Of a DNA stretch of 44,821 nucleotides, positions 1 through 40,280 are shown piece after piece; within the stretch, counting starts at the first letter, position 1; each line of letters begins with the position of its first letter. Source of the stretch: Candidatus Aminicenantes bacterium (GTDB lineage: Archaea; Nanobdellota; Nanobdellia; Woesearchaeales; JAFCCF01); the NCBI GenBank assembly GCA_017610325.1, contig JAFCCF010000010.1:1-44821 (forward strand), read 5' to 3'. The notes beneath the pieces were generated by a model that was not told where the DNA came from, made no database searches, and saw nothing but the letters and a program-made list of their open reading frames with translations. A program made the translations under genes and the position numbers.

Positions 1-1898
1 CAAATCAAATCACATACCTAAACCCAAGTAGTGGGTGGTGGCACGAATACACTTATGATTCTGGATTAGGTAGCTATACAGAGCAGCATTGGCAAGATGG
101 TATTGACAATCCTATGAAGCAAGATGGTCAAGCTCAGGGCCCCTTTTATATGTTGGGGTTGCTTGTTAATAATCCTAATGCTAATTCATGGACTATAGAT
201 GGTCAGATATATAATAAAAATAATCTGCCTGAAGATTACCAAGACCAAATATATTCTCTATTCTACCAACAAAACCCATCCCCTCCAAATACTGCTACAG
301 GCGGCATTGCCGAATCAAGCATTCCTGACGGAAAAACAATGTTTGGAGATGACTATATGTATATTTATGATGCAGGTAAAGGTCAATGGGAAAAGCTTGA
401 TTTCAGTGGCCAGTCTGTTAACGGCGGAACATTCCTTGACACCTCAGAGCTTCCTGATATTCTTCAACAGGATCTAAAGGCAGAGTTCCCTGCGGGACCA
501 TCAACAACACCAGACATACCAAGTCCAATGGTTGACCAAAGCTTTGACTATTATACTTCAGGCGGTGAATACTGGCGGCAGAAAGATGGAGAATGGCAGA
601 AGTTTGAAAAGGGCAAATGGGAAGATTCGGACGAAGCGCCAAAAAATCCAAAACCATTCAAAAAAAAAAAAAAAAAAACAGGCAAGGGAGAAAAAGAAGA
701 AGAGAAAGAAAAAGATGAAACGTGGAAAGGTGCAGCGCTGTATCTTCCTTATTCAACCTTTGATCCTAATAAACCAACCGACTATTATACCTTTGGTGAC
801 GAGCAAGGCTATATGTCTTATTATCTTGGTAACTTGTACTTTTGCCCTAGTGGTGCAAATCGCAATGATGGCAACAACTGGAAGAAGATAAGCAAGAAGG
901 ACGTGGATGAAGCAACATGGGAAATGTACAGGAAGGACATATTCAGGGATGTTGCAGACTCAATGTTGAAGCGAAGGGTTGCCCAGATGGCAAGTCTTGT
1001 TAATATCATTAACCCGTCAATTGGTGCATTTGAGATAGGCAAGATATTGGAAAAATGGATGGGCGGTGATATTAGCTTGAGGCCAAAGCAAGGAACATGG
1101 TGGTATGATGCAATTGGATATTTTGAAGCAGGGTTTGAAACAGCATGGTGCAAGGAAAAAGCATCGTCATATTTCACAATGGATAGACCAGGCCACTTTG
1201 TTGGCGGCGGAGAATTCCCAACTGTTAATTCAATCACAATCTATGCACTTGGAAAAAGACAGGAATATATTAACAGTGAACAGCTTGACTGGAACACAAA
1301 CTACAGGCAGAATGGTACAAAGCCTAACTGGTTCCCTAACATTGAGTCAACAACTCCAACAACAATCCCAACTGTAACAACCACCACCCCTGGTGCTACA
1401 ACTACAACCTTGATTTATTCAAATACTAACCCTGGCATGAGCGCAGCAGGCTACATATACAAGCTCACATGGTTCATCAAGCACCCGTTCACAGCAGATG
1501 ACGTTAATAATATGAATCTTAACAAGAGGCTTAGTAATGGCTTGGACAAGGACGGCAACATCACATTCCAGATTTGGATTAAAGAAAAAGGAATACCAAA
1601 GATGACAACAAAGGGTTATATGGTTTCGCCAGAGATGATATTAGCACCAGGCGGATTAATTCAGGAGACAAAGGTTAAGTACCAGATGCCTTATCTCACT
1701 GAAATCTGCATCAAATTTAATACTTACAAGTGGAATGGAAATCACCTGGAATATCCTGCAAACTGCGACTCACCTGATGGTAAGATGGGTATGATAATCT
1801 TGCAGGAGGTTGAGGGTGCAGGCCAGTATCAGGGCATGGCTCCCAGCTCTCTGAGCCCGCCTTCACCTGGCAGTGGAAGTAGTGACTGGGATTGGTAA
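1..1898 (+). CDS. Large secreted/surface protein, 5'-truncated by the window edge. It has a Trp/Tyr/Gly-rich N-part, a Lys/Glu patch, a Thr-rich linker and a C-terminal W-C...YIYxLTW domain.
   Basis: The frame of the 114..1898 ORF stays open back to nt 3 with no stop, so the gene starts upstream of the window. There is a Thr/Pro linker (STTPTTIPTVTTTTPGATTTT). The C-terminal motifs ETAWCKEK, YIYKLTWF and YLTEICIKFN align with AKSWCNPA, YIYLITWG and YQYVCLEFN of the 698-aa protein at 10266..12362. Confidence 0.7.
   Translation, partial: NQITYLNPSSGWWHEYTYDSGLGSYTEQHWQDGIDNPMKQDGQAQGPFYMLGLLVNNPNANSWTIDGQIYNKNNLPEDYQDQIYSLFYQQNPSPPNTATGGIAESSIPDGKTMFGDDYMYIYDAGKGQWEKLDFSGQSVNGGTFLDTSELPDILQQDLKAEFPAGPSTTPDIPSPMVDQSFDYYTSGGEYWRQKDGEWQKFEKGKWEDSDEAPKNPKPFKKKKKKTGKGEKEEEKEKDETWKGAALYLPYSTFDPNKPTDYYTFGDEQGYMSYYLGNLYFCPSGANRNDGNNWKKISKKDVDEATWEMYRKDIFRDVADSMLKRRVAQMASLVNIINPSIGAFEIGKILEKWMGGDISLRPKQGTWWYDAIGYFEAGFETAWCKEKASSYFTMDRPGHFVGGGEFPTVNSITIYALGKRQEYINSEQLDWNTNYRQNGTKPNWFPNIESTTPTTIPTVTTTTPGATTTTLIYSNTNPGMSAAGYIYKLTWFIKHPFTADDVNNMNLNKRLSNGLDKDGNITFQIWIKEKGIPKMTTKGYMVSPEMILAPGGLIQETKVKYQMPYLTEICIKFNTYKWNGNHLEYPANCDSPDGKMGMIILQEVEGAGQYQGMAPSSLSPPSPGSGSSDWDW
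660..678 (+). repeat. A19 homopolymer inside the coding sequence, encoding KKKKKK.
   Basis: Counted directly: ttc followed by 19 consecutive A, then c. The tract lies in-frame in the first CDS. Confidence 0.9.
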
Positions 1899-4256: not shown

Positions 4257-5082
4257 AAAAAAGAGCATAAAAAAAGCAGGCAAGCCTGCACCAAAAAAAC
4301 AGCTAGCTAAGCAGCCAGCTAAGCAGCCTGCTAACTACTTCAAGAGAATATTCCAGATTTATATTAACAGCTTTAAAGACCTTAACAATGATTATTTCTT
4401 CTATGTCTTCTTTGACCTGCTGTTCCTGGTCTTTGTATCATTAGTGAGCTACCTAGCAGGCATAATCCTGACAAAATACACTGGCAGCCTTGCTGCATTC
4501 CAGGCAATGGACTCGGTTGATATCCAATATCTAACTCAGCTTAAGTCAGTGATTGGTACAATCTTCTTTGTCATGATAGTTACTGTGCTGCTGTTTATAG
4601 CTGGCTGGTCACTTGCAAAAACCTTCATATACAACAGAATCTACAAGAACAAGTTTAACTGGAAGGTTTTCCTAAAGTTCTTCCTGTCTAATCTTGGTAT
4701 TGGGATAATCTTTGTTATTATCATGGCAACCATGCCCACCTTTGTGCTGCAGAGCAAGGTGCCAATATTTGGCCTGATTGTGATGCTGGTGCTGGGCTAC
4801 CTTATAACAATCTTTTACATCCTGTTTTTCAAGCTCAGGAAGTTTGGCAAGACATTCAGCGCAACAGCCTACACAGCAGTCATGCGCATCCACAAATACT
4901 TCCTGCCTTTTTTGATATGCACACTCACTGTTTTGATAGTACTTGGCATCTTCTCTACAATCATATTCAACATCAGCTCAGGAACAATAGCTAACATCAT
5001 CAGTGCCATCTTCTTGTTGTTTGTCATTGCCTGGGCTAGGCTGTATCTTATCAAGATTGTTGAATATATTGGTTATGGGTAA
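4249..5082 (+). CDS. Polytopic membrane protein (277 aa) with a Lys-rich cytoplasmic N-terminus. Paralog of 22153..22977.
   Basis: The ATG at 4249 overlaps the upstream stop by 8 nt (ATGGCTAA). The protein starts MAKKKSIKKAGKPAPKK and has about 6 hydrophobic segments. IAGWSLAKTFIYNRIYKNKFNWKVFLKFF aligns with ILHGINWFIVSRKLLNYKIKFWTYIGKFA of the 22153 gene. Confidence 0.75.
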   Translation: MAKKKSIKKAGKPAPKKQLAKQPAKQPANYFKRIFQIYINSFKDLNNDYFFYVFFDLLFLVFVSLVSYLAGIILTKYTGSLAAFQAMDSVDIQYLTQLKSVIGTIFFVMIVTVLLFIAGWSLAKTFIYNRIYKNKFNWKVFLKFFLSNLGIGIIFVIIMATMPTFVLQSKVPIFGLIVMLVLGYLITIFYILFFKLRKFGKTFSATAYTAVMRIHKYFLPFLICTLTVLIVLGIFSTIIFNISSGTIANIISAIFLLFVIAWARLYLIKIVEYIGYG

Positions 5083-5093
5083 GTTTTCTATTC

Positions 5094-5801
5094 CTACTCT
5101 ACAAATCTTCTAAGCATTCCCACCACTAAACTTGCCTTTAGGATATCTCCCAGAACCTGTTCAGCAATATACTCTTGCAGGTCTGGCCTGGAGATTATCT
5201 TTTCTGCTGCCTTCTTAACCAGTAAATTTCCCCTAAACTTTGTTTTAGAATAAGACAACAGGGCATAAATATCGCAGGCATCCTTTAATTCCTTGTCTAA
5301 TTTCTCTCTTTCAAAGAAAGAGTTTGTTTTTAGGTCTAGAAGGGAGCTAACATCCAAAACAGGGAATCCTTCTATGTTTATTATCTTAACTTTTGCCAGT
5401 CCTGGAAGAACCCAACTACCAACATCTTTTGTTCTTTTGTTTGAGAAAACATCCAGGAAAATATATGCTAGGTCAAAAATATGCTTGCTCTTGGCTTTTT
5501 CAGAAGAGATAATCTTCTTTTCTTCCCTGTCATAAATCAGTTCATATCTAAAATCATAAGAGCTCTCTTTAAACCCAAGTTCTTTGATAATCTTTAAGAA
5601 ATCCTTTTCATCCCTTGAATCAATAAAAACATCAATATCTCTTGACTTTAGGTATTCTTTTCCAAATGCTCTTTGGTATTCACTCTTCACCTGCAAAAAA
5701 ACAGCCCAGCCGCCAATTACTGCAAATCTTAACTGTTTTACACTTTCATTTAGATTTATCAGGTATTCATAAGAAATGCTGGTCTCAATTGGGTCATACA
5801 T
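5094..5801 (-). CDS. Nucleotidyltransferase-fold protein, AbiEii-like (candidate type IV toxin).
   Basis: FAVIGGWAVFLQV...SRDIDVFID matches the minimal NTase GG-x(n)-[SR]-D-I-D signature of AbiEii/DUF1814-type proteins. It is 235 aa and overlaps the upstream wHTH gene by 8 nt (ATGTATGA). Confidence 0.55.
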   Translation of the reverse strand: MYDPIETSISYEYLINLNESVKQLRFAVIGGWAVFLQVKSEYQRAFGKEYLKSRDIDVFIDSRDEKDFLKIIKELGFKESSYDFRYELIYDREEKKIISSEKAKSKHIFDLAYIFLDVFSNKRTKDVGSWVLPGLAKVKIINIEGFPVLDVSSLLDLKTNSFFEREKLDKELKDACDIYALLSYSKTKFRGNLLVKKAAEKIISRPDLQEYIAEQVLGDILKASLVVGMLRRFVE

Positions 5802-6420
5802 TTTTCTTCCTCATTAAACTTAGAACATTTTCTGCTGCCTCATCACCTCTTCCCCCATATGAAATCAGGTCAATATACAACTGAGGCAGGGAAATAATCT
5901 TAACACCCCGTATCTCCTGGCTTCCATAAAAATAGTTATCATCAACTATATAACATTTAATATTGCCCTTTTCAGCTGGCATGATGCCTTGTTTTACAAA
6001 TATATTGGAGATTTGCTTTTCTCTACCTTTGAGGATATACAGGTGCACCGTATCTGGCGCAACATAAGGGGCAGCAATCTCTGTAGCTGAAAACAAAGTA
6101 AGGGCATATGTTTCTTTTCTCAGCAAACTACTGATTTTTTTAATTAGATACTGTGGCCTCTCAGCAGCAAGGAACTCTATCTTCTCATTTTCTTTTACAG
6201 AAACTGTACCTGACCAGGCTTGAAGAAGCTTTTCCCAACTGACTACCCTTGCCCCTGCTTTTTTTTTTAAATGCCCGCAGGACACCAGTGTCTCAACTAC
6301 CTTTGCTGTCATTCCAAGAGAAACCTGCGCCTTGCCAGCTAGCTCCCTTAGTCTTAATTTTTTCTGCCTTTCATTCAGCAAAACCCTGATGATGTTTTGG
6401 GTTGATTTGTTTATTATCAT
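5794..6420 (-). CDS. Winged-helix DNA-binding protein, AbiEi-like (candidate antitoxin and autorepressor).
   Basis: The N-terminal wHTH-like segment is IIRVLLNERQKKLRLRELAGKAQVSLGMTAKVVETLVSCGHL, followed by a C-terminal domain of about 140 aa. It sits immediately upstream of, and is translationally coupled to, the NTase gene. Confidence 0.5.
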   Translation of the reverse strand: MIINKSTQNIIRVLLNERQKKLRLRELAGKAQVSLGMTAKVVETLVSCGHLKKKAGARVVSWEKLLQAWSGTVSVKENEKIEFLAAERPQYLIKKISSLLRKETYALTLFSATEIAAPYVAPDTVHLYILKGREKQISNIFVKQGIMPAEKGNIKCYIVDDNYFYGSQEIRGVKIISLPQLYIDLISYGGRGDEAAENVLSLMRKKNV

Positions 6421-6745: not shown

Positions 6746-9616
6746 GTGAAAAATAAAGAAAGGCACCTGTATTACATAGCATTATTTGTATCGCTTTTGG
6801 TAGTTTTTACACCATTGTCAAGTTTCTATGTGTATGCGACTACAACCACAGCATCAACATCTTCTTCGACAAGCTCAACAACCACAAGCACTACAACAAC
6901 TACAACATCAACAACTACTACTACTACTACAACCACAACAGCCTCAACTACAACTACTTCAACCACCACCACAACCCTTGATACAGAACCACCCTCAATT
7001 GGAACAATCCTCAAGATAACAAAGAATGGGGAAGATGTACAGTATATTGGCCCAAATAGCATCAGTGGTGTTGAAATCACTGTTGAGATTACAGAGCCAA
7101 CAAACCCAACTGTGTACTTTGACCTGTCTGCTGTTGGCGGCTCATCAAGTGTTCCTGCCAGAGTTTGTACAAAGTCAGGCACTGTTTGGAAATGCTCGCT
7201 GTTAGATGTTACATTAATGTCACCTACAGGCCAGATTTCAATTGATGTTTCAGCTTCTGATACAGCTGGCAACACTGCAACTAGCACTGTTACCAAAACC
7301 ATCCAGCTTGACAACCTTGGTCCAGATGTCACGTTTATAGGGACTGATAAGCTAGAGAACAGCATCAGCTATGCAAAGACAGCAAAGAACACCCTGGTAG
7401 TCAGGTTATCTGAGACTGGAGCAGGTATTAATGACAATAACATCTTCCTTGACCTTACACAATTTAATGGCATGTACAGTGTTCAGGCAGACAACTGTAC
7501 ACAGGGAGCAGTGTGGGCATGCTATTGGTATAATGTAAATGCATATGGAAGAAATTCAGGAGACAGGCTGAAGATAATTGTCCTGCCAACATCTACAGAT
7601 GATGTTGGAAACCCAGCTTCTGGCTTAAGTGAGGCAGAGATTGTGCTTGATAAGGAACCTCCAAGGCTCCTTAACATAACAATAACCTCAGTTGGCAGCC
7701 TGGGTGAAACAGAATACCACCAGTCAGGAGACCTGCTGAAGATTGAGGCAAATATATCAGACAATGAGTCAAGTGTTACAGCAGTTGCGGATTTATCAAA
7801 CTTGTTTATGTCAGGGCATGATGCAGAGTATGCAACCTGCACTGCATATGGCTCAAACAGTTATACATGCCAGTGGACAACTGATGCAATAAAAACAGGC
7901 TATTACAAGACCATCATTAACTTTAATCTCAGTGACTTTGTTGGCAATGAACTCCTCACAACAGAGAGTATTGAGGTGTTTGAGACAAGTGAAGAAATAC
8001 CCAACAACTTTGTTCTTATTGTTGACGAAGATGAGATGCTGCCTGAGAATGGAGTTAGCAGGCTGACCATGAGCCTGATTGGCAATTATCTCATATCAGT
8101 TCCATTCTATGTCAGCGGCTCAAATGAGGTACTTAGATTAACAGTTGATGAGTGCAAGATTGAGAATGATACTGGTCTTTATACAACATATTTCCAAAAC
8201 CAGCTGAATCCAGACCTGGCAAGACCTGCAACACAGTCAGGCAGGTGGAACAGGGTAGAGTTTTACTTTGGTTATAACGGCGCAAGGTTTTCCTCACCGC
8301 AGATTAATGGCTTGGATGATTTCCGTGTTACATGCAACTTGAATATTTATCAGAAACAGGGTAATGTGGTTTATCCAATTCCTGAGATTGAAAAGTTTGA
8401 GTTTGAGATTGACTTGCGGGATTCTGCTTTAGGCGGACCTCCTGGAGAGGTTGTAGCTGACAAAATACAGCAGACAAAGGATAACTGGCTTACAGAGAGC
8501 AAATGGATAACTGATATTTACAAGTTCCTTGACTGGGCAGAGTTTATCTGCAGGACAGGCAAGAGCCTGGTGATGATGTGGCAGCAGTTCCTTGTGCTTG
8601 AGAATGTTGGCTATGCATTGATGAAAAGCCCTAACACCGCAATGCAGGCAATTGGTAAACCAATTTTCCAGGCGGGGTGTCATGCTTATGAAGGTCTTGG
8701 TGGGATATTCTGGACTGTGTGGTTTGGAGCTGACAAGAGGGCGAAGGGTGCTTCTAAGAGATGCAGTGTTGTATCTGCAGATAACTACATCAAACCACAG
8801 CCTTTGCCTTCCCAGCCAACAACAATTGCAGAGGCACTTAAAAAACCTGAAGGAAAATTTAACATGAGATGGATTTGCGGCTGGGCAACATGTGAATATG
8901 GGTTGCTAGAGCTTAGCGAGTACACTGGCGGTAATGTGATTAATAACATCCTAAGCGGTGTTGATGTTGGTGAGGAAGAGGACCTGAATCAATTCCTAAG
9001 ACAACGCCTGCACATACACCTTGATGATTCATTTAATGCCCGCAATAGCATATTGTTCAGTGCTGCAAGCATGTGCCTGCCAGGTGTGTTCTATAACCTG
9101 AACAAGTACAGGCAGATTAATTGTAAATATATCTCGTGCTTAGAAAATGTCACAACTGCAGGCGGTGACTTTAGTGTGTGTGATGAAGCAAAGAGCCAGG
9201 CATGGTGCCTTAGCTTTTGGGGCGAGGTGTTTGAGGTAATTGGCCCAGCGCGAGTGTTAGGTGTGCTGAGCCAACAGATTAGAGGCATATTTGTAAACTT
9301 TATTCCAGTCACATTAGATAATATATTCAAGAGTGCTGTGTGCGAGAAAACAGACCAAAAGAACTGGGCATATATTTGGTTCTGTGATGTACCTAGTGTC
9401 ATATATTCAGCAATTGACACCTATGGCAGGGCAGCTGGAATTGGGGCTGTGTTTTCAATAGATAAGATGTTCAGCAAGCCAGATGTTGAGGATGTGTGCG
9501 CACAGGTGTTTCCTAAGAACGAGACAAGTGGGGATGATTCAAGCACACCAACCACAACAAATAAGGGCGGTTCATCAACAATAACATTTGGCCCAGATAC
9601 AACAACCACAACATGA
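6746..9616 (+). CDS. 956-aa secreted surface protein with a signal peptide, a 46-aa Ser/Thr stalk, three Ig-like repeats, a Cys-rich C-terminal domain and a Thr tail.
   Basis: A GTG start is preceded by AGGTG 5 nt upstream and TTTAAATATA at 6691-6700. The signal peptide ends in VYA. Repeats run from [EG]PP... to D[TD]AGN/DDVGN/DFVGN. The segment SAASMCLPGVFYNLNKYRQINCKYISC aligns with SASCVCLPAFEGYLKHYKNIADATKQC of the 1873-aa protein. Confidence 0.8.
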   Translation: MKNKERHLYYIALFVSLLVVFTPLSSFYVYATTTTASTSSSTSSTTTSTTTTTTSTTTTTTTTTTASTTTTSTTTTTLDTEPPSIGTILKITKNGEDVQYIGPNSISGVEITVEITEPTNPTVYFDLSAVGGSSSVPARVCTKSGTVWKCSLLDVTLMSPTGQISIDVSASDTAGNTATSTVTKTIQLDNLGPDVTFIGTDKLENSISYAKTAKNTLVVRLSETGAGINDNNIFLDLTQFNGMYSVQADNCTQGAVWACYWYNVNAYGRNSGDRLKIIVLPTSTDDVGNPASGLSEAEIVLDKEPPRLLNITITSVGSLGETEYHQSGDLLKIEANISDNESSVTAVADLSNLFMSGHDAEYATCTAYGSNSYTCQWTTDAIKTGYYKTIINFNLSDFVGNELLTTESIEVFETSEEIPNNFVLIVDEDEMLPENGVSRLTMSLIGNYLISVPFYVSGSNEVLRLTVDECKIENDTGLYTTYFQNQLNPDLARPATQSGRWNRVEFYFGYNGARFSSPQINGLDDFRVTCNLNIYQKQGNVVYPIPEIEKFEFEIDLRDSALGGPPGEVVADKIQQTKDNWLTESKWITDIYKFLDWAEFICRTGKSLVMMWQQFLVLENVGYALMKSPNTAMQAIGKPIFQAGCHAYEGLGGIFWTVWFGADKRAKGASKRCSVVSADNYIKPQPLPSQPTTIAEALKKPEGKFNMRWICGWATCEYGLLELSEYTGGNVINNILSGVDVGEEEDLNQFLRQRLHIHLDDSFNARNSILFSAASMCLPGVFYNLNKYRQINCKYISCLENVTTAGGDFSVCDEAKSQAWCLSFWGEVFEVIGPARVLGVLSQQIRGIFVNFIPVTLDNIFKSAVCEKTDQKNWAYIWFCDVPSVIYSAIDTYGRAAGIGAVFSIDKMFSKPDVEDVCAQVFPKNETSGDDSSTPTTTNKGGSSTITFGPDTTTTT
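6839..6976 (+). repeat. Low-complexity ACN/TCN codon tract encoding a 46-residue Ser/Thr stalk.
   Basis: Read directly: TTTTASTSSSTSSTTTSTTTTTTSTTTTTTTTTTASTTTTSTTTTT, immediately after the predicted signal-peptide cleavage site. Confidence 0.9.
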
Positions 9617-16520: not shown

Positions 16521-19500
16521 TGAAGAGAGCGACATTTGTAATATTTGTAATGATTTTGTTAGTTGCTGGAATAGCTACAGCAACAACAACTACTTCCACT
16601 ACTACTACAACCACCACCACAATTGACATCAGCGGCCCTCTCTTCATCAACACAGTTATTCCTGAGTTTTACAATGATGTTGAACTGGATATTGAGCTTC
16701 TCACAAAACCATCTGCTGAGGTATTTATCTATGTCAATGGCGAGCTCAAAAGACACAGTGTCATGGATGCAACAGGATTTTACAGGTTTGCTGATGTCAC
16801 ACTTAACCAGAACCTTTTCGAGAACAAAATCAATATTGAGGCAAAGGATTCAACTGGTTCTGTGTCCCAGGATTTCAGTGTAAAGCTTGACCTTATACCA
16901 CCTACAGTTACTCTCAAGAACCTTACAGATTTCACTGACCAGGCTACGCTGACTGTGCAGGGTACAGTTAGTGAGGATGTAAATGCAATTTTCTACCTGA
17001 GCTATGAAAGCGGGGAGAAATTCATTGAGCATAAGACAGACATTGCAGCTGGCTCGTTTTCAGAGACCGTCAACTTCAACAAGGGGGAGGGCAATTATGA
17101 GCTTGAGATAAAATTCAATGACTCTGGAGGGAACATTGTAGCAAAAACAGTAGATATTGCAATGGATGCAAGCCCGCCTGCAATAAACCTTAACCCTGCA
17201 CTTAACCAATTATCACCTTCATATGTTGATACGGTGAGGATTAAGGGCACCACAGACCCGAATGCACTGATTATTGTGTTTGTCAATGAGAAAACCTCAA
17301 CACATAAGAGCTATAGCCTAGGTGTTGTATCGATACTTGAAAAGCTTGGCAGGCTTGTTGAGGGTAAGACAGAATTACACACAACAGCTGACGGCGAAGG
17401 TAACTTTATGATTGATGTTCAGCTCACCCAGGACATTGCGGTGAGGAGCGAGGACTCTATTACCATAACACGCCCAGGTGGTACTGGGTATGTTGAGGAG
17501 ATCAGGTATTCAACAGGCAACCAGTGGCGCAACTCCATCAAGATTGTTGCAATTGACAAGTATGAGAGGGAATCACAGCCAATCACAGGCGAGATTATGT
17601 ATGCATACTGCGGTGCAGGCGGTTACTGGGGCGTCACTATTGAGAACCCAACACCAAGTATAATCCAGCCAATCCATCTGTTAAGAGGCATTGCAAGCCT
17701 TGGCTTTAACTACAGGCTTGAATGGAATGGGCCAGGCGATGCAAGCAAGGCTCGCATCAATGGCAGGCCAAGAATTGCGAAGTACACAAAGCTCAGCGGT
17801 GAGGAGTCCAAGGAATATGACAATGACCTGATTCCGTCTGGAGATATCTTCTCCCAGTTCAGCCAGCAGGCAAAAGTTGGCAGTGTAACTATTAACCTGA
17901 TGAAATGGCAGAAAACTGAGCAGGAGATTGAGGACATGGGGAAACTCAAGTTTTTCCTTGAGATGGAAATTCCCTACACCTTTGACTATTACGGTGCTAT
18001 TGGCACTGGCAGGCAGAGGAAGTGTATACCAATACATATCCAGGTTGACAAGAACATCATGGCGCACATTCCAGATGGCATGCTCAAGTTTGGTGTCAAG
18101 GCATTGAATGCAACCATTGATGTTATTGATACAGTGTTGGATGTTGTGGAAGATGTAAGGAAATTTACATTTGTAGGCTGCATTGCAATGCAATATGGCT
18201 ATAACCAGTGGATGTGGATAAAGGAAAAGCTTGCATGCGTATCATATGCTACCAACTTATTCACTCCACCTGTGCCAGAGCATGGAGAAACAATTGAACT
18301 GGCATGCAGCAAGGAAGGTGACAAGCAGGAAGATTGCGAGAAATGCTGGGAAGCAAAGGTCAGCAGGAGAAAAGCAGAAAAAACAATGCAGTGGGTGTGC
18401 GACCGTGTTTATTGCCCAGCTGCGCCAAGTGTCGAATATTATGCGCAAGAGCAGAAATCAAACCAGAACAAAATTTACTATTATTTTGAAGATGATGAGC
18501 CAGTTGTGTACCAGGGCAGCCAGTGCTATGATTACGATGCACTGAGGCCATCTTATTCTATACCTGCCAGCTCTGAAAACATTGATTCCTGCGGCAAAGA
18601 ATACAAGTATGAATGGGATCCAGCATGCATCTCAGTTGATGAGTACAGGAAGTCATTCAAGGAAACCTATGACACAAACTTCTTCAACAGCTTTGTGGAC
18701 TTTACAAGCGACATCTGCAGCAAGGGCGAGAAAGACCAATATGTAAGAACATTTGAGGCAAATGTGCTTGGTAAAAAGCATCCTTACCTTGTTATCAAGC
18801 TAAAAGGTGATACATCAGTAAATGACCCAACAGCTAACATGCATCTTAAGAGGTCAGGCTCTGAAAGGGTTGACTTCCAGTATGAGTTTGACAAGGGTGA
18901 GGGAGGAGATGGTATCAGGAACTATGGCCAGGACCGCGAGGTAAAGATTAAGCTGGTTAGCTTTACTTACCTTTACAAAAAAGGCTATAGGCTGTTTAAC
19001 AGAAGCGAGAGAACTAATGGTGTTGCACCAAAGGTTCATGAATGGAGAGAAGCATTTATCTCAGAGTCAGGTGTTATGGCTGATCTCGATAGGGCAGTTA
19101 ACGAGATTATGGGACTTCCGGATTATAATTATTATGACAAGTATTACCAGTGCAATGATGGCATTGACAATGACGATGATGGCCTTATAGACTTTACAAC
19201 AAAGGATGGTGACCCTGATTGTACTTCAGTCTATGATGATACTGAAAGCGAAGATAGGCCTCCATCAGGCGACCTTGCCAAGGATCCGCAGGAGGTTGGC
19301 AAATGGCTTGCACAGAAGTATTGTATACCCCCTGAAGCTGGGGAATCAAAGAAACAAGACGATGCTAATAAAGAAACTCTAGAAGCACAGAGCGGGTGTG
19401 ACGCGTACAGTTCTAAGTTCCCCAACAAGGGCAATGACAAAGATTTGCTTACCTGCAAGACCCGGGCAGAGAACCATTGTGATGTAATCCATGCCCAGAC

Positions 19501-27339: not shown

Positions 27340-30561
<3,222 letters not shown>

Positions 30562-30622: not shown

Positions 30623-31477
30623 ATGGCAGAGAAAAAAGTTGTTAAGGCAGAGTCTAAGAAAAGGAAAAAGCGCTGGTTTAAGATAGTTGCTTCAAAGCAG
30701 TTTAATCATTGCGAAATAGGGGAGACCCAGGTATACACTTCTGATGAGGTTATTGGGAAAACAGCTAAAGTAAACCTGACAAATCTTACGAATGATATGA
30801 AGAAGCAGCACGTGAATGTCACATTTAAGGTTAACCAAGTCAAGGATGGTGTTGGCTACACAGAATTGATTTCATATAAAATTATGCCAACCCATATTAA
30901 GAGGATTATAAGGAGAAACACAGAAAAATTGGATGATTCTCTGGTCCTTCGCACAAAGGATAATGTATTAGTGAGGATAAAACCATTGCTTGTTACAAGG
31001 GGAAAGGTCAAGGGCTCAGTTGTAGCAGTCATCAGGCGAAAGGCAAGGGCTTTCCTGAACCATCATGTTAAAAAATCAAGTTATGAATTGCTCATCAATG
31101 ATATTATCACTTCAAGGCTTCAGTCTGGGATGTACAGATTCCTAAAAAAAGTGTATCCAATTAAGACCAGTGAGATTAGGTCAATAAGTATTGAGAAAGA
31201 AAAGACATCAGTGGCAGAGCTTGGGGATAAGAAAGCAAAAAAAGAGATGCCAGAGCCAGAGAAAAAAGAAGAGAAGCAGGAAGAAAAACCAGAGAAACCC
31301 AAAGAAAAGAAAGAAGAAGCGAAAAAGCCAGAGCCAGAGAAAAAAGAAGAGAAGAAAGAAGAAACACGAAAAGAGCAAAGCTCTTTTGTGTCCCAGAAAC
31401 CAAAAGTTTCTGTGAAGCCAGCAGAAGAGAAGAAAGCAGAGCCAAAGCAAGATAAGAAAAACAATAAGTCAGATTAA
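30623..31477 (+). CDS. rps3ae: 30S ribosomal protein S3Ae (eS1) with a C-terminal Lys/Glu-rich extension of about 85 aa.
   Basis: KKRKKRWFKIVASKQF...VNLTNLTNDMKKQHVNVTFKV...RIKPLLVT is typical of S3Ae. The tail starts near 31190. Confidence 0.85.
   Translation: MAEKKVVKAESKKRKKRWFKIVASKQFNHCEIGETQVYTSDEVIGKTAKVNLTNLTNDMKKQHVNVTFKVNQVKDGVGYTELISYKIMPTHIKRIIRRNTEKLDDSLVLRTKDNVLVRIKPLLVTRGKVKGSVVAVIRRKARAFLNHHVKKSSYELLINDIITSRLQSGMYRFLKKVYPIKTSEIRSISIEKEKTSVAELGDKKAKKEMPEPEKKEEKQEEKPEKPKEKKEEAKKPEPEKKEEKKEETRKEQSSFVSQKPKVSVKPAEEKKAEPKQDKKNNKSD
31360..31426 (+). repeat. Copy 1 of a perfect 67-nt direct repeat, inside the S3Ae tail.
   Basis: It is identical base-for-base to 40148-40214 (offset 8788 nt). 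It contains two hairpins: ACAC-g-AAAAGAGC/aaa/GCTCTTTT-GTGT and CAGAAAC/caaaa/GTTTCTG. Confidence 0.9.
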
Positions 31478-32602: not shown

Positions 32603-33076
32603 TTACTTCTTCAAGCAAGCGCAAAGCTTATATCCTTTATTCAGAGCTGTTGCTTTTGAGCGAAAGATAACCTTGTGTTTTGGCAGTATATTCTTTGCAA
32701 ATGGACAGTGCATATCATGCACAACATTGCCTTCTTTAGTAGCAACAAAAACCTTTTTTGCCCTTGCATGAACAGTCTTGACAACCACTTTGGGCTTTGA
32801 CTTAACTGTCTTGACAATCACTTTAGGCTTTGACTTAATTCTCTTGACAACCACTTTGGGCTTTGACTTAACTGTCTTGACAATAACCTTAGGCTTTGAC
32901 TTGACTGTCTTGACAATTGTCTTTGGCTTAACCTGTATCTTCTTTCTTAAGTCATCAACATGCTCCATTATTCTCTCCTGTGCTTGAGCGATGTCTGCAA
33001 TCTTATTCTGCATCTTGATTATATCATTCTTGCATCTTCGGAAAGACTCAACAACTTTTAATTCCACATCATTCAT
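32603..33076 (-). CDS. Coiled-coil protein with Lys-rich 11-aa tandem repeats and a C-terminal Ada-like Zn-binding domain.
   Basis: The C-terminus VVHDMHCPFAKNILPKHKVIFRSKATALNKGYKLCACL fits the Ada_Zn_binding pattern (H-x3-C-x-x-A-x-x-I ... F-x-S ... A-x-x-x-G-Y-x-x-C-x-x-C). The ATG at 33076 is preceded by GGGGG with an 8-nt spacer. Confidence 0.55.
   Translation of the reverse strand: MNDVELKVVESFRRCKNDIIKMQNKIADIAQAQERIMEHVDDLRKKIQVKPKTIVKTVKSKPKVIVKTVKSKPKVVVKRIKSKPKVIVKTVKSKPKVVVKTVHARAKKVFVATKEGNVVHDMHCPFAKNILPKHKVIFRSKATALNKGYKLCACLKK
32775..32935 (-). repeat. 33-nt tandem repeat, about 4.8 copies, in-frame, encoding (KTVKSKPKV[IV]V)n.
   Basis: Units lie at 32775-32807, 32808-32840, 32841-32873 and 32874-32906, plus a degenerate fifth unit. 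Units 1 and 3 differ only at their first base. Confidence 0.9.
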
Positions 33077-33127
33077 TTTAGATTCCCCCAATATGAGTTT
33101 ATAATGATTGTGATGAATATATACTAT

Positions 33128-39740: not shown

Positions 39741-40280
39741 ATGGCTGATTTCAAGATTATAATTGCAGATCCAAAAACAGGTAAATGCGCACAGAGAGAA
39801 ATAAAAGACCAAGAAGCTGATGTTCTGGTTGGGCTGAAGATTAGAGATAAGGTTAAGGGAGAACACATGGGCCTTGCTGGTTATGAGTTTGAGATAACTG
39901 GTGGCAGTGACCATTGTGGGTTTCCTATGAGGAAGGATGTCTCAGGTCAGGCAAGAAAAAAGATTCTGGCAGTGGAAGGAGTAGGAGTTAAAAAGAAAGA
40001 CGACGGAATAAAGCAGAGAAAAACTGTGTGTGGTAATACAATACATGCAAAGATTGCCCAGGTTAATCTTAAAACCCTAACTTATGGTAAAGAGAATCTC
40101 TTTGAGGGGGAAAAAGAGGAGGCACCAGCAAAAGGAGAGGCAAAAGCAGAAACACGAAAAGAGCAAAGCTCTTTTGTGTCCCAGAAACCAAAAGTTTCTG
40201 TGAAGCCAGCAGAAAAGAAAGAAGAAGTGAAAAAGCCTGAGCAAAAGCCAGAGCCAAAACAAGAGGAAAAAAAGGAATAA
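39741..40280 (+). CDS. rps6e: 30S ribosomal protein S6e with a C-terminal Lys/Glu-rich extension of about 55 aa.
   Basis: MADFKIIIADPKTGKCAQREI...GYEFEITGGSDHCGFPMRKDV...RKTVCGNTI is typical of S6e. The tail shares ETRKEQSSFVSQKPKVSVKPAE with S3Ae. Confidence 0.85.
   Translation: MADFKIIIADPKTGKCAQREIKDQEADVLVGLKIRDKVKGEHMGLAGYEFEITGGSDHCGFPMRKDVSGQARKKILAVEGVGVKKKDDGIKQRKTVCGNTIHAKIAQVNLKTLTYGKENLFEGEKEEAPAKGEAKAETRKEQSSFVSQKPKVSVKPAEKKEEVKKPEQKPEPKQEEKKE
40148..40214 (+). repeat. Copy 2 of the perfect 67-nt direct repeat, inside the S6e tail.
   Basis: Identical to 31360-31426, in the same reading frame relative to its host CDS. Confidence 0.9.

Follow-up and report, generated by a model that had tools for sequence, protein, structure and literature searches.

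The 44,821-nucleotide (nt) stretch analyzed here (the whole of contig JAFCCF010000010.1, positions 1 to 44,821, referred to as the window) carries the genes for ribosomal proteins S3Ae and S6e, whose C-terminal tails both contain the same short palindromic segment, hereafter the module. An initial annotation, made from the sequence alone, had described an exact repeat in the two tails that lies on one strand, keeps one codon phase, and forms two hairpins. Direct reading and a comparison at an offset of 8788 nt confirmed that positions 31360-31426 and 40148-40214 are identical over all 67 nt. The shared strand and phase and the in-frame position within the C-terminal tails were likewise borne out by translation and Pfam searches, and the peptide encoded by both stretches is ETRKEQSSFVSQKPKVSVKPAE. 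The features concerned are the following:

30623..31477 (+), gene for ribosomal protein S3Ae, 284 amino acids (Pfam Ribosomal_S3Ae, E 2e-36)
31342..31448 (+), wider similar stretch, 89% alike to 40130-40236, with purine-rich flanks that exceed background likeness
31360..31426 (+), first copy of the 67-nt identical stretch, in which the core is extended leftward by 1 nt and rightward by 9 nt (CCAGCAGAA)
31361..31417 (+), module copy 1 in the S3Ae C-terminal tail (placed by alignment; covariance model R1 score 91 bits)
31364..31391 (+), hairpin 1, ACAC-G-AAAAGAGC / AAA / GCTCTTTT-GTGT, 12 bp with one bulged G
31394..31412 (+), hairpin 2, CAGAAAC / CAAAA / GTTTCTG, 7 bp
39741..40280 (+), gene for ribosomal protein S6e, 179 amino acids (Pfam Ribosomal_S6e, E 6e-33)
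40148..40214 (+), second copy of the 67-nt identical stretch, equal to 31360-31426
40149..40205 (+), module copy 2 in the S6e C-terminal tail, with hairpin 1 at 40152-40179 and hairpin 2 at 40182-40200
peptide stretch predicted in the module-carrying tails: KEQSSFVSQKPK

The proposed unit of 67 nt stood only in part. Identity between the two window copies does extend over 67 nt, but alignment with four copies found on other contigs places the boundaries of the family unit at a 57-nt core of 19 codons (31361-31417 and 40149-40205), which encodes ETRKEQSSFVSQKPKVSVK. With the six copies aligned, this core reads GAA ACA CGA AAA GAG CAA AGC TCT TTT GTG TCC CAG AAA CCA AAA GTT TCT GTG AAG, and the window pair shares a further 1 nt to its left and 9 nt to its right. 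A repeat search of the window returned a wider similarity of 107 nt at 89%. Sub-patterns of 26 to 28 nt taken from the 67-mer occur at two places only in the window, even when 3 mismatches are allowed, where shuffled sequences lead us to expect 0. A covariance model built from the six copies found no additional copy in the 44.8-kb window or in contigs L001 to L005. In the 67-mer, five of the six reading frames are open, which means that the frame common to the copies is not imposed by stop codons alone.

Both host proteins have tails rich in Lys and Glu. In S3Ae, the tail rich in Lys, Glu, and Pro starts near residue 195 and has the module at residues 247 to 265; the S6e tail is rich in Lys, Glu, Ala, and Pro from about residue 121, with the module at residues 137 to 155, and its last residues, EEKKE, are common in homologues. 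The gene for eIF2-gamma begins 4 nt after the S6e gene. Among the matches listed, the best for the window S6e are proteins named Woesearchaeota or Nanoarchaeota, with identity of up to 72% over the folded domain. All 120 S6e homologues listed, which are mostly Woesearchaeota-like, have C-terminal tails rich in Lys, Glu, Pro, and Ala of 10 to 130 residues, many of them ending in EEKKE, and none of the 120 carries the module, a check made on S6e. Such tails are thus ordinary in the lineage, and the module would be an insertion into one of them. This result, obtained on homologues in line with the check that the initial annotation had proposed, together with the structural conservation described below, speaks against the possibility that the segment is simply a common low-complexity tail lacking conserved structure.

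Fold prediction reproduced the two adjacent stem-loops of 12 bp (with a bulge) and 7 bp that had been claimed for the repeat. The window module has a minimum free energy of -19.2 kcal/mol (z = -3.5), a stability reached by 0 of 200 shuffles; across the module copies, z ranges from -2.9 to -5.8. The 5' end of the 67-nt stretch, AGAAAC (31360-31365), repeats the 5' arm of hairpin 2 at 31395-31400, the complement of which, GTTTCT, lies at 31406-31411. It could therefore pair with GTTTCT in place of the hairpin 2 arm, and such a pairing would enclose hairpin 1. On the minus strand, at 31369-31387 and 40157-40175, hairpin 1 is followed by CGTGTTTCT, an arrangement that looked terminator-like in a simple scan (a consensus match only) and that could halt antisense transcription.

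Variation among the copies follows this structure. The six full copies, compared from ACAC to TCTG, differ at 7 positions, which comprise 5 of the 11 unpaired sites and 2 of the 38 paired sites (Fisher p = 0.004). When third-codon positions are considered, 3 of the 4 unpaired ones vary, compared with 0 of the 12 that are paired (p = 0.007). The sole one-sided stem change among the six copies turns an A-U pair into G-U, which pairs in the sense RNA and not in DNA or antisense RNA; in hairpin 2 of the copy on contig L001, one change breaks a pair. Covariation was nil among these first six copies and emerged with more diverged variants taken from loose ends. With those variants included and missing letters masked as N, 5 of the 19 pairs show compensatory double changes, and 99.2% of the cells are paired. 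The covariation score is 0.116, compared with 0.050 in shuffles, and none of 500 shuffles reaches 0.116; controls in which the pairing was slid along the alignment gave 0 to 1 such pairs.

The compensated pairs lie in both hairpins, at core pairs 13-23 and 15-21 of hairpin 1 and at 3 of the 7 pairs of hairpin 2. Hairpin 1 reads AAAAAATC-GGA-GATTTTTT in one variant (X10 rec5) and CAAAAATC-GTA-GATTTTTT in another (X18 rec4). In a third (X24 rec12), hairpin 2 is a perfect 7-bp stem, CAGAGTC-CAGAG-GACTCTG, in a piece whose remainder is identical to the window; its peptide has QSPEDSV(KP) in place of QKPKVSV, and pairing is retained. A further variant encodes TRKNRRFF in place of TRKEQSSF, again with pairing retained, and the pieces X15 and X18 rec3 have CAGAAAT-TTTTA-ATTTCTG as hairpin 2. 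Since pairing is kept while the encoded peptide changes, nucleic-acid structure and not the peptide defines the module. The compensatory changes do not separate an RNA role from a DNA palindrome that is needed for copying or corrected arm to arm.

Searches of other DNA, proposed in the initial annotation as a count of copies, yielded four further gene contexts and about 60 metagenome contig pieces. The copies in these four gene contexts are identical to the window copy at 52 to 56 of 57 nt (90 to 98%), and all are in the same frame. This frame is constant in all six full gene contexts, three of which are ribosomal proteins, and the peptide QSSFVSQKPKVSV is conserved in the six proteins. The first outside copy came from a scan of JGI metagenome contigs with a 22-mer joining both hairpins. 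It lies on contig L001 (32.6% G+C), 17 codons after the start of a gene for a transglutaminase-like membrane protein beside ispG and dxs. On this contig, positions 1-1384 (-) hold IspG (GcpE) and the start of DXS, genes of the bacterial-type methylerythritol phosphate (MEP) isoprenoid pathway, and the host may be either a bacterium or a DPANN archaeon that acquired its MEP genes. Directly upstream of the module-bearing gene, at 1500-1548, a G+C-rich inverted repeat (CCCACCGCCACCC ... GGGGTGGAGGG) sits in an AT-rich spacer.

A HMMER search with a 30-position peptide profile, covering 1.84 billion representative proteins, recovered the window S3Ae and two new carriers. Contig L003 (39.3% G+C) has the module in the Lys/Glu tail of S24e, whose gene lies at 4280-4804 (+). 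Its tetranucleotide correlation with the window is 0.935, which is inside the range of the window's own chunks, and by this compositional measure L003 and the window may share one genome, in which case one organism would have three module-bearing ribosomal protein tails. The same module-bearing S24e gene also occurs on a 21,181-nt NCBI contig (P0127). On contig L004 (33.3% G+C), the module is at the N terminus of an 89-amino-acid protein whose gene adjoins gvpA, and the 90% cluster of that GvpA has named members from Woesearchaeota and Nanoarchaeota. A region-restricted search added contig L005, in which the module lies 7 codons before the stop of a 132-amino-acid protein without a Pfam match, possibly a DNA-binding protein. 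The four contigs with copies thus have G+C contents of 32.6%, 33.3%, 39.3%, and 40.5%, and the flanks of the module are unrelated between copies except among the ribosomal protein tails. One metagenome contig (X5) ends ...VSVKREIIVSH-stop and the L005 protein ends ...VSVKEKITVSH-stop, so that the two are clear homologues; because this homologue carries the module as well, at least one insertion predates a speciation. A match to a 655-amino-acid repetitive protein (P0121) was rejected as false, as it has SCFVSQKP alone in common with the module.

The exact 49-mer and 22-mer gave no match in a genome-contig collection, which evidently lacks the genome of the window. Viral contigs contained no module copy in scans with two exact patterns and one back-translated peptide, and these scans give no sign of a viral vector. 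Sampled 31-mers of the module occur in at least 24 public metagenome runs from 14 studies, with habitats that include seawater, marine, groundwater, soil, sediment, hydrothermal vent, biofilm, and mixed culture. Logan contigs from 18 of 20 runs provided about 60 pieces with the module, 80 to 100% alike, whose flanks differ and whose right edge is mostly at the equivalent of 31416-31421. In two groundwater runs, many contigs break off inside the module, and the summed depth there is far above that of single contigs; such contig ends and excess depth indicate that the module behaves as a repeat. Three RNA runs were listed, none of which contains module words.

The reading frame of the module is generally open in these pieces. 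When the 30-nt loose ends were translated, 22 of 27 upstream flanks and 16 of 18 downstream ones left this frame open; the other two frames were often closed. Two of the five closed upstream flanks have a stop followed by ATG right before the module, giving N termini such as MPETRK... and MEAEIETRK..., and another, open upstream flank starts METRKNRRFFVSQ.... Of the two closed downstream flanks, one simply reaches the natural stop of its gene. Three or four pieces seem to be noncoding, partial, or in another frame (X21 rec7, X23 rec9, X13 rec4, and the X15/X18 locus). At the variant X15/X18 locus, the module lies inside a larger palindrome (GAAGGCAT ... ATGCCTTC), and the runs differ by a 1-nt indel upstream, which suggests a noncoding copy.

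The flanks of the window pair also bear on how its two copies arose. They are alike at 17 of 24 and 19 of 24 positions, compared with a mean of 10.9 in a codon-phased background of tails (P≥17 0.03; P≥19 0.006). Because the flanks too are more alike than background, the perfect identity of the two copies is likely to have come about through tail-to-tail conversion. The 5' flank of the S3Ae copy has 17 of 18 nt in common with that of the S24e copy, and its 3' flank is shared with the S6e copy, a mosaic that fits ectopic recombination or conversion between purine-rich tails coding for Lys and Glu. The S3Ae and S6e copies are therefore probably very recent sister copies made by conversion from tail to tail. 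In such an exchange, ectopic recombination or gene conversion would run between Lys/Glu-coding tails, and flanking homology in phase would keep the codon frame; transposition-like copying would be an alternative for the pair. As the flanks on L001 and L005 are unrelated, another route, or older events, placed those copies.

Repeats of 6 nt flank the ribosomal protein copies (GCAGAA/GCAGAA in S6e, GAGGAA/GAGGAG in S24e, and GAAGAA/GCAGAA in S3Ae) and none of the other copies. The repeat is perfect in S6e and matches at 5 of 6 positions in S24e and S3Ae; in all three it lies in low-complexity purine runs, and we attach little weight to it. As for the founder, the 5' arms of the hairpins are purine runs of the Lys/Glu type and the 3' arms are their complements, which leads us to suggest that the first module may have stemmed from snap-back copying within a Lys/Glu tail.

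We consider it reasonably probable that the module is a dispersed, coding-compatible palindromic repeat, constrained in structure and distributed across Woesearchaeota-like DPANN archaea, and that the pair in the window was made recently by conversion. An element of this kind would sit within a few dozen residues of an N or C terminus, where an extra hydrophilic peptide of 19 residues is presumably tolerated, and the pairing of its hairpins would be kept by selection or by self-correction of the palindrome. We infer its selfish or mobile nature, the route by which it is copied, and the translation of the tails. The initial annotation had offered three explanations, namely recent gene conversion or transfer of a module, a miniature mobile element that is tolerated because it keeps the frame, and selection at the RNA level. 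This set finds support in the evidence. The in-frame element fits the recurrence in unrelated genes and different organisms, and conversion is the likely proximate step for the window pair. Selection on the hairpins is supported by the compensatory changes, which do not tell an RNA role from upkeep of a DNA palindrome.

Several observations weigh against our interpretation. Pfam searches of the open reading frames in the window revealed no transposase, reverse transcriptase, or Y1/HUH domain, and only two module copies are present within its 44.8 kb. The module has no terminal inverted repeats, and the direct repeats that flank it are only suggestive in low-complexity sequence. Insertion would have to be deduced from distant homologues only. 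The letters that show covariation come from single assembled contigs and were taken from loose ends. No sequencing run was found that contains the S3Ae region of the window and would allow a read-level check of the assembly. Finally, high nucleotide conservation across organisms combined with covariation would suit a functional RNA just as well.

The main alternative, which we hold to be unlikely, is an RNA module with a function in cis that was recruited to many mRNAs, those of ribosomal proteins among them, for example for protection of the 5' or 3' end from exonucleases, protein binding, or control of translation rate, and that spread in a non-selfish manner. It would account for the compensatory changes in both hairpins, for synonymous sites that are frozen only in the stems, and for the one-sided A-U to G-U change that pairs in the sense RNA only. 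The recovered gene contexts are also all sense and near the end of an open reading frame, and 3 of the 6 full contexts are ribosomal proteins. Against this stand host genes that are unrelated in function (ribosomal proteins, a transglutaminase-like membrane protein, one that putatively binds DNA, and the 89-amino-acid protein encoded next to gvpA) and a position that alternates between 5' and 3' ends. Covariation is also to be expected of DNA palindromes, through transposition or arm-to-arm correction, no Rfam family matches the module, and no RNA-seq run was found to contain it. In Rfam 15, neither the window nor L001 matched a family at gathering scores, and permissive settings returned a chance match to PK-BYV only (12.7 bits, E 4.5). 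A related idea, that a portable RNA module selected for its structure resides inside coding sequence and acts at mRNA ends (for example as an exonuclease block or a handle for protein binding on ribosomal protein and other messages), has spread horizontally among DPANN archaea of many habitats, and is always translated in the frame that gives a harmless peptide, we regard as similarly doubtful. A functional role in mRNA and the repeat element that we favor are compatible with each other and not mutually exclusive.

Plain gene conversion within one genome, in which one Lys/Glu tail chanced to have the sequence and overwrote another and no dispersed element was involved, would explain why perfect identity runs 9 to 10 nt past the core and why the flanks, within 107 nt at 89%, exceed background. 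We think it very improbable as a full account, since it leaves the copies in four other genes on contigs of differing G+C content, the roughly 60 metagenome pieces with unrelated flanks, and the compensatory changes unaccounted for. Selection acting on the protein, for a short linear peptide motif that serves for instance in docking or modification near the termini, would be in keeping with the constant frame, the terminal position, and the conservation of the peptide in six proteins; the likeness in nucleotides would then merely follow from a recent common origin. However, synonymous sites are invariant in the stems and variable in the loops, the variants QSPEDSV and TRKNRRFF alter the peptide while retaining the pairing, and the segment lies outside any Pfam family, so that we give this explanation very little credence. 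Least credible of all is an assembly or sequencing artifact (such as a repeat that was collapsed, a chimeric join, or contamination by adapter-like sequence): a single read is longer than the module, which lies inside the contig, both copies run on into the correct end of their respective genes (EEKKE in S6e, with eIF2-gamma 4 nt on), and the same module recurs in frame and with natural variants in independent JGI, ENA, NCBI, and Logan assemblies.

Several other features of the window were noted. At 32603-33091 (-), an open reading frame of 162 amino acids with no Pfam match contains about five tandem 33-nt (11-amino-acid) units, KSKPKV[IV]VKTV, at 32717-32944, after which comes a C-terminal part rich in Cys and His; in peptide sequence, and not in nucleotides, the unit is similar to the KPKVSVKP of the module. 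Upstream of the S3Ae gene, 27340-30561 (+) is a DNA gyrase B gene in which the GyrB and Toprim domains are separated by an intein about 420 residues long (Intein_splicing, residues 447 to 869). At 5094-6420 (-), the window encodes an AbiEi-like antitoxin (E 5e-10) and then a weak, sub-threshold nucleotidyltransferase match (NTP_transf_5, E 6e-4), a pair that, judged by these domain matches, looks like an AbiE-type toxin-antitoxin or abortive-infection system in a DPANN genome. The region 1-22138 (+) contains large open reading frames of up to 1873 amino acids without a Pfam match, save for a weak VanY-like end, and with Thr-rich ACN repeats at 1345-1407, 6840-6974, and 16563-16622; their products are probably surface proteins.

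In-frame palindromic repeats are best known from Rickettsia, the textbook case, and from a few other bacteria. An archaeal counterpart would mean that this in-gene lifestyle arose independently in another reduced-genome, host-dependent lineage. The module comprises only 57 nt, kept at about 90% identity or more across organisms of differing G+C content and habitat, with compensated hairpins. It may offer a handle on how new peptide segments enter essential proteins (three ribosomal proteins here), on low-complexity Lys/Glu tails as landing or recombination pads, and on whether DPANN archaea form a shared gene-exchange network. In practical terms, the module breaks metagenome assemblies and could be used as a lineage marker.

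Among known systems, the Rickettsia palindromic elements (RPE; Ogata et al. 2000, as reviewed in PMC10969869) offer the nearest parallel, being palindromic, located in frame in unrelated genes, and present with a conserved peptide in several species. Like them, the module is a dispersed palindromic repeat that lies in frame in several species and adds an extra, tolerated peptide, and no transposase is known for either. The module occurs in multiple copies at unrelated loci, keeps a constant in-frame position within open reading frames, and has S6e homologues that lack the insert, all of which are marks of RPE-like elements. RPEs, however, are about 100 to 150 bp long, bacterial, and confined to Rickettsia, whereas the module is 57 nt, archaeal (DPANN), placed at protein termini (often in Lys/Glu-rich ribosomal protein tails), and found in many habitats. 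By this analogy, the module is a counterpart of RPE rather than a member of that family, from which its size and host set it apart and to which sequence similarity is not evident.

Repetitive extragenic palindromic sequences and bacterial interspersed mosaic elements (REP/BIME) are extragenic, have one end tagged with GTAG or CGTC, and are accompanied by a gene for a REP-associated tyrosine transposase (RAYT; IS200-like Y1) (PMC3733652). They resemble the module as hairpin repeats of 20 to 60 nt whose stems are kept by compensatory change and which are without terminal inverted repeats. The module differs from them in that it is intragenic and translated, its consensus ends lack GTAG and CGTC, and no RAYT or TnpA is encoded in the window. 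An element derived from IS200/IS605, which would have like subterminal hairpins at its two ends for recognition by a single TnpA, was also rejected, as the two hairpins differ in sequence and length and the window has no TnpA or TnpB.

Prokaryotic MITEs (transposable elements of the miniature inverted-repeat type) include intragenic, in-frame ones such as ERIC and the Coxiella QMITE (PMC10969869, PMC5896051). The module shares with MITEs a small size (at the low end of their 50- to 800-bp range), multiple copies, a non-autonomous appearance, and in-frame fusion to open reading frames. What defines MITEs, in contrast, is the possession of terminal inverted repeats and target-site duplications, and they are mostly intergenic, whereas the module is almost always in coding sequence, has internal hairpins, and shows no clear target-site duplication: neither of its ends, GAAACACG... 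and ...TCTGTGAAG, is the inverse of the other, and its inverted repeats are internal and correspond to the two hairpins. A MITE census that relied on terminal inverted repeats placed one Woesearchaeal genome among the highest archaeal MITE densities, with about 89 to 90% of elements intergenic (PMC11602168). Because of its dependence on terminal repeats and the roughly 89% of archaeal MITEs that are intergenic, the module would have escaped that census (PMC11602168).

The Lys/Glu/Pro/Ala tails of archaeal ribosomal proteins are a host context for the module and not a relative of it, since the tails are of low complexity and the module is discrete, nonrepetitive, and structured. Other candidates were set aside on specific grounds. 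The variable and template repeats of a diversity-generating retroelement do not fit copies that are identical at every A in a window with no reverse transcriptase domain. There are no tandem G-A pairs for a K-turn/L7Ae site, no 3-4-3 bulge-helix-bulge for a splice motif of that type, no array for a CRISPR repeat, and no Rfam match for a tRNA-like att site; adapter contamination is contradicted by natural variants that are in frame and interior to contigs. Full-text literature searches returned no description of such an element in DPANN archaea. Taken against these systems, the module would seem, with moderate probability, to be a new, archaeal, and very small coding-compatible palindromic repeat.

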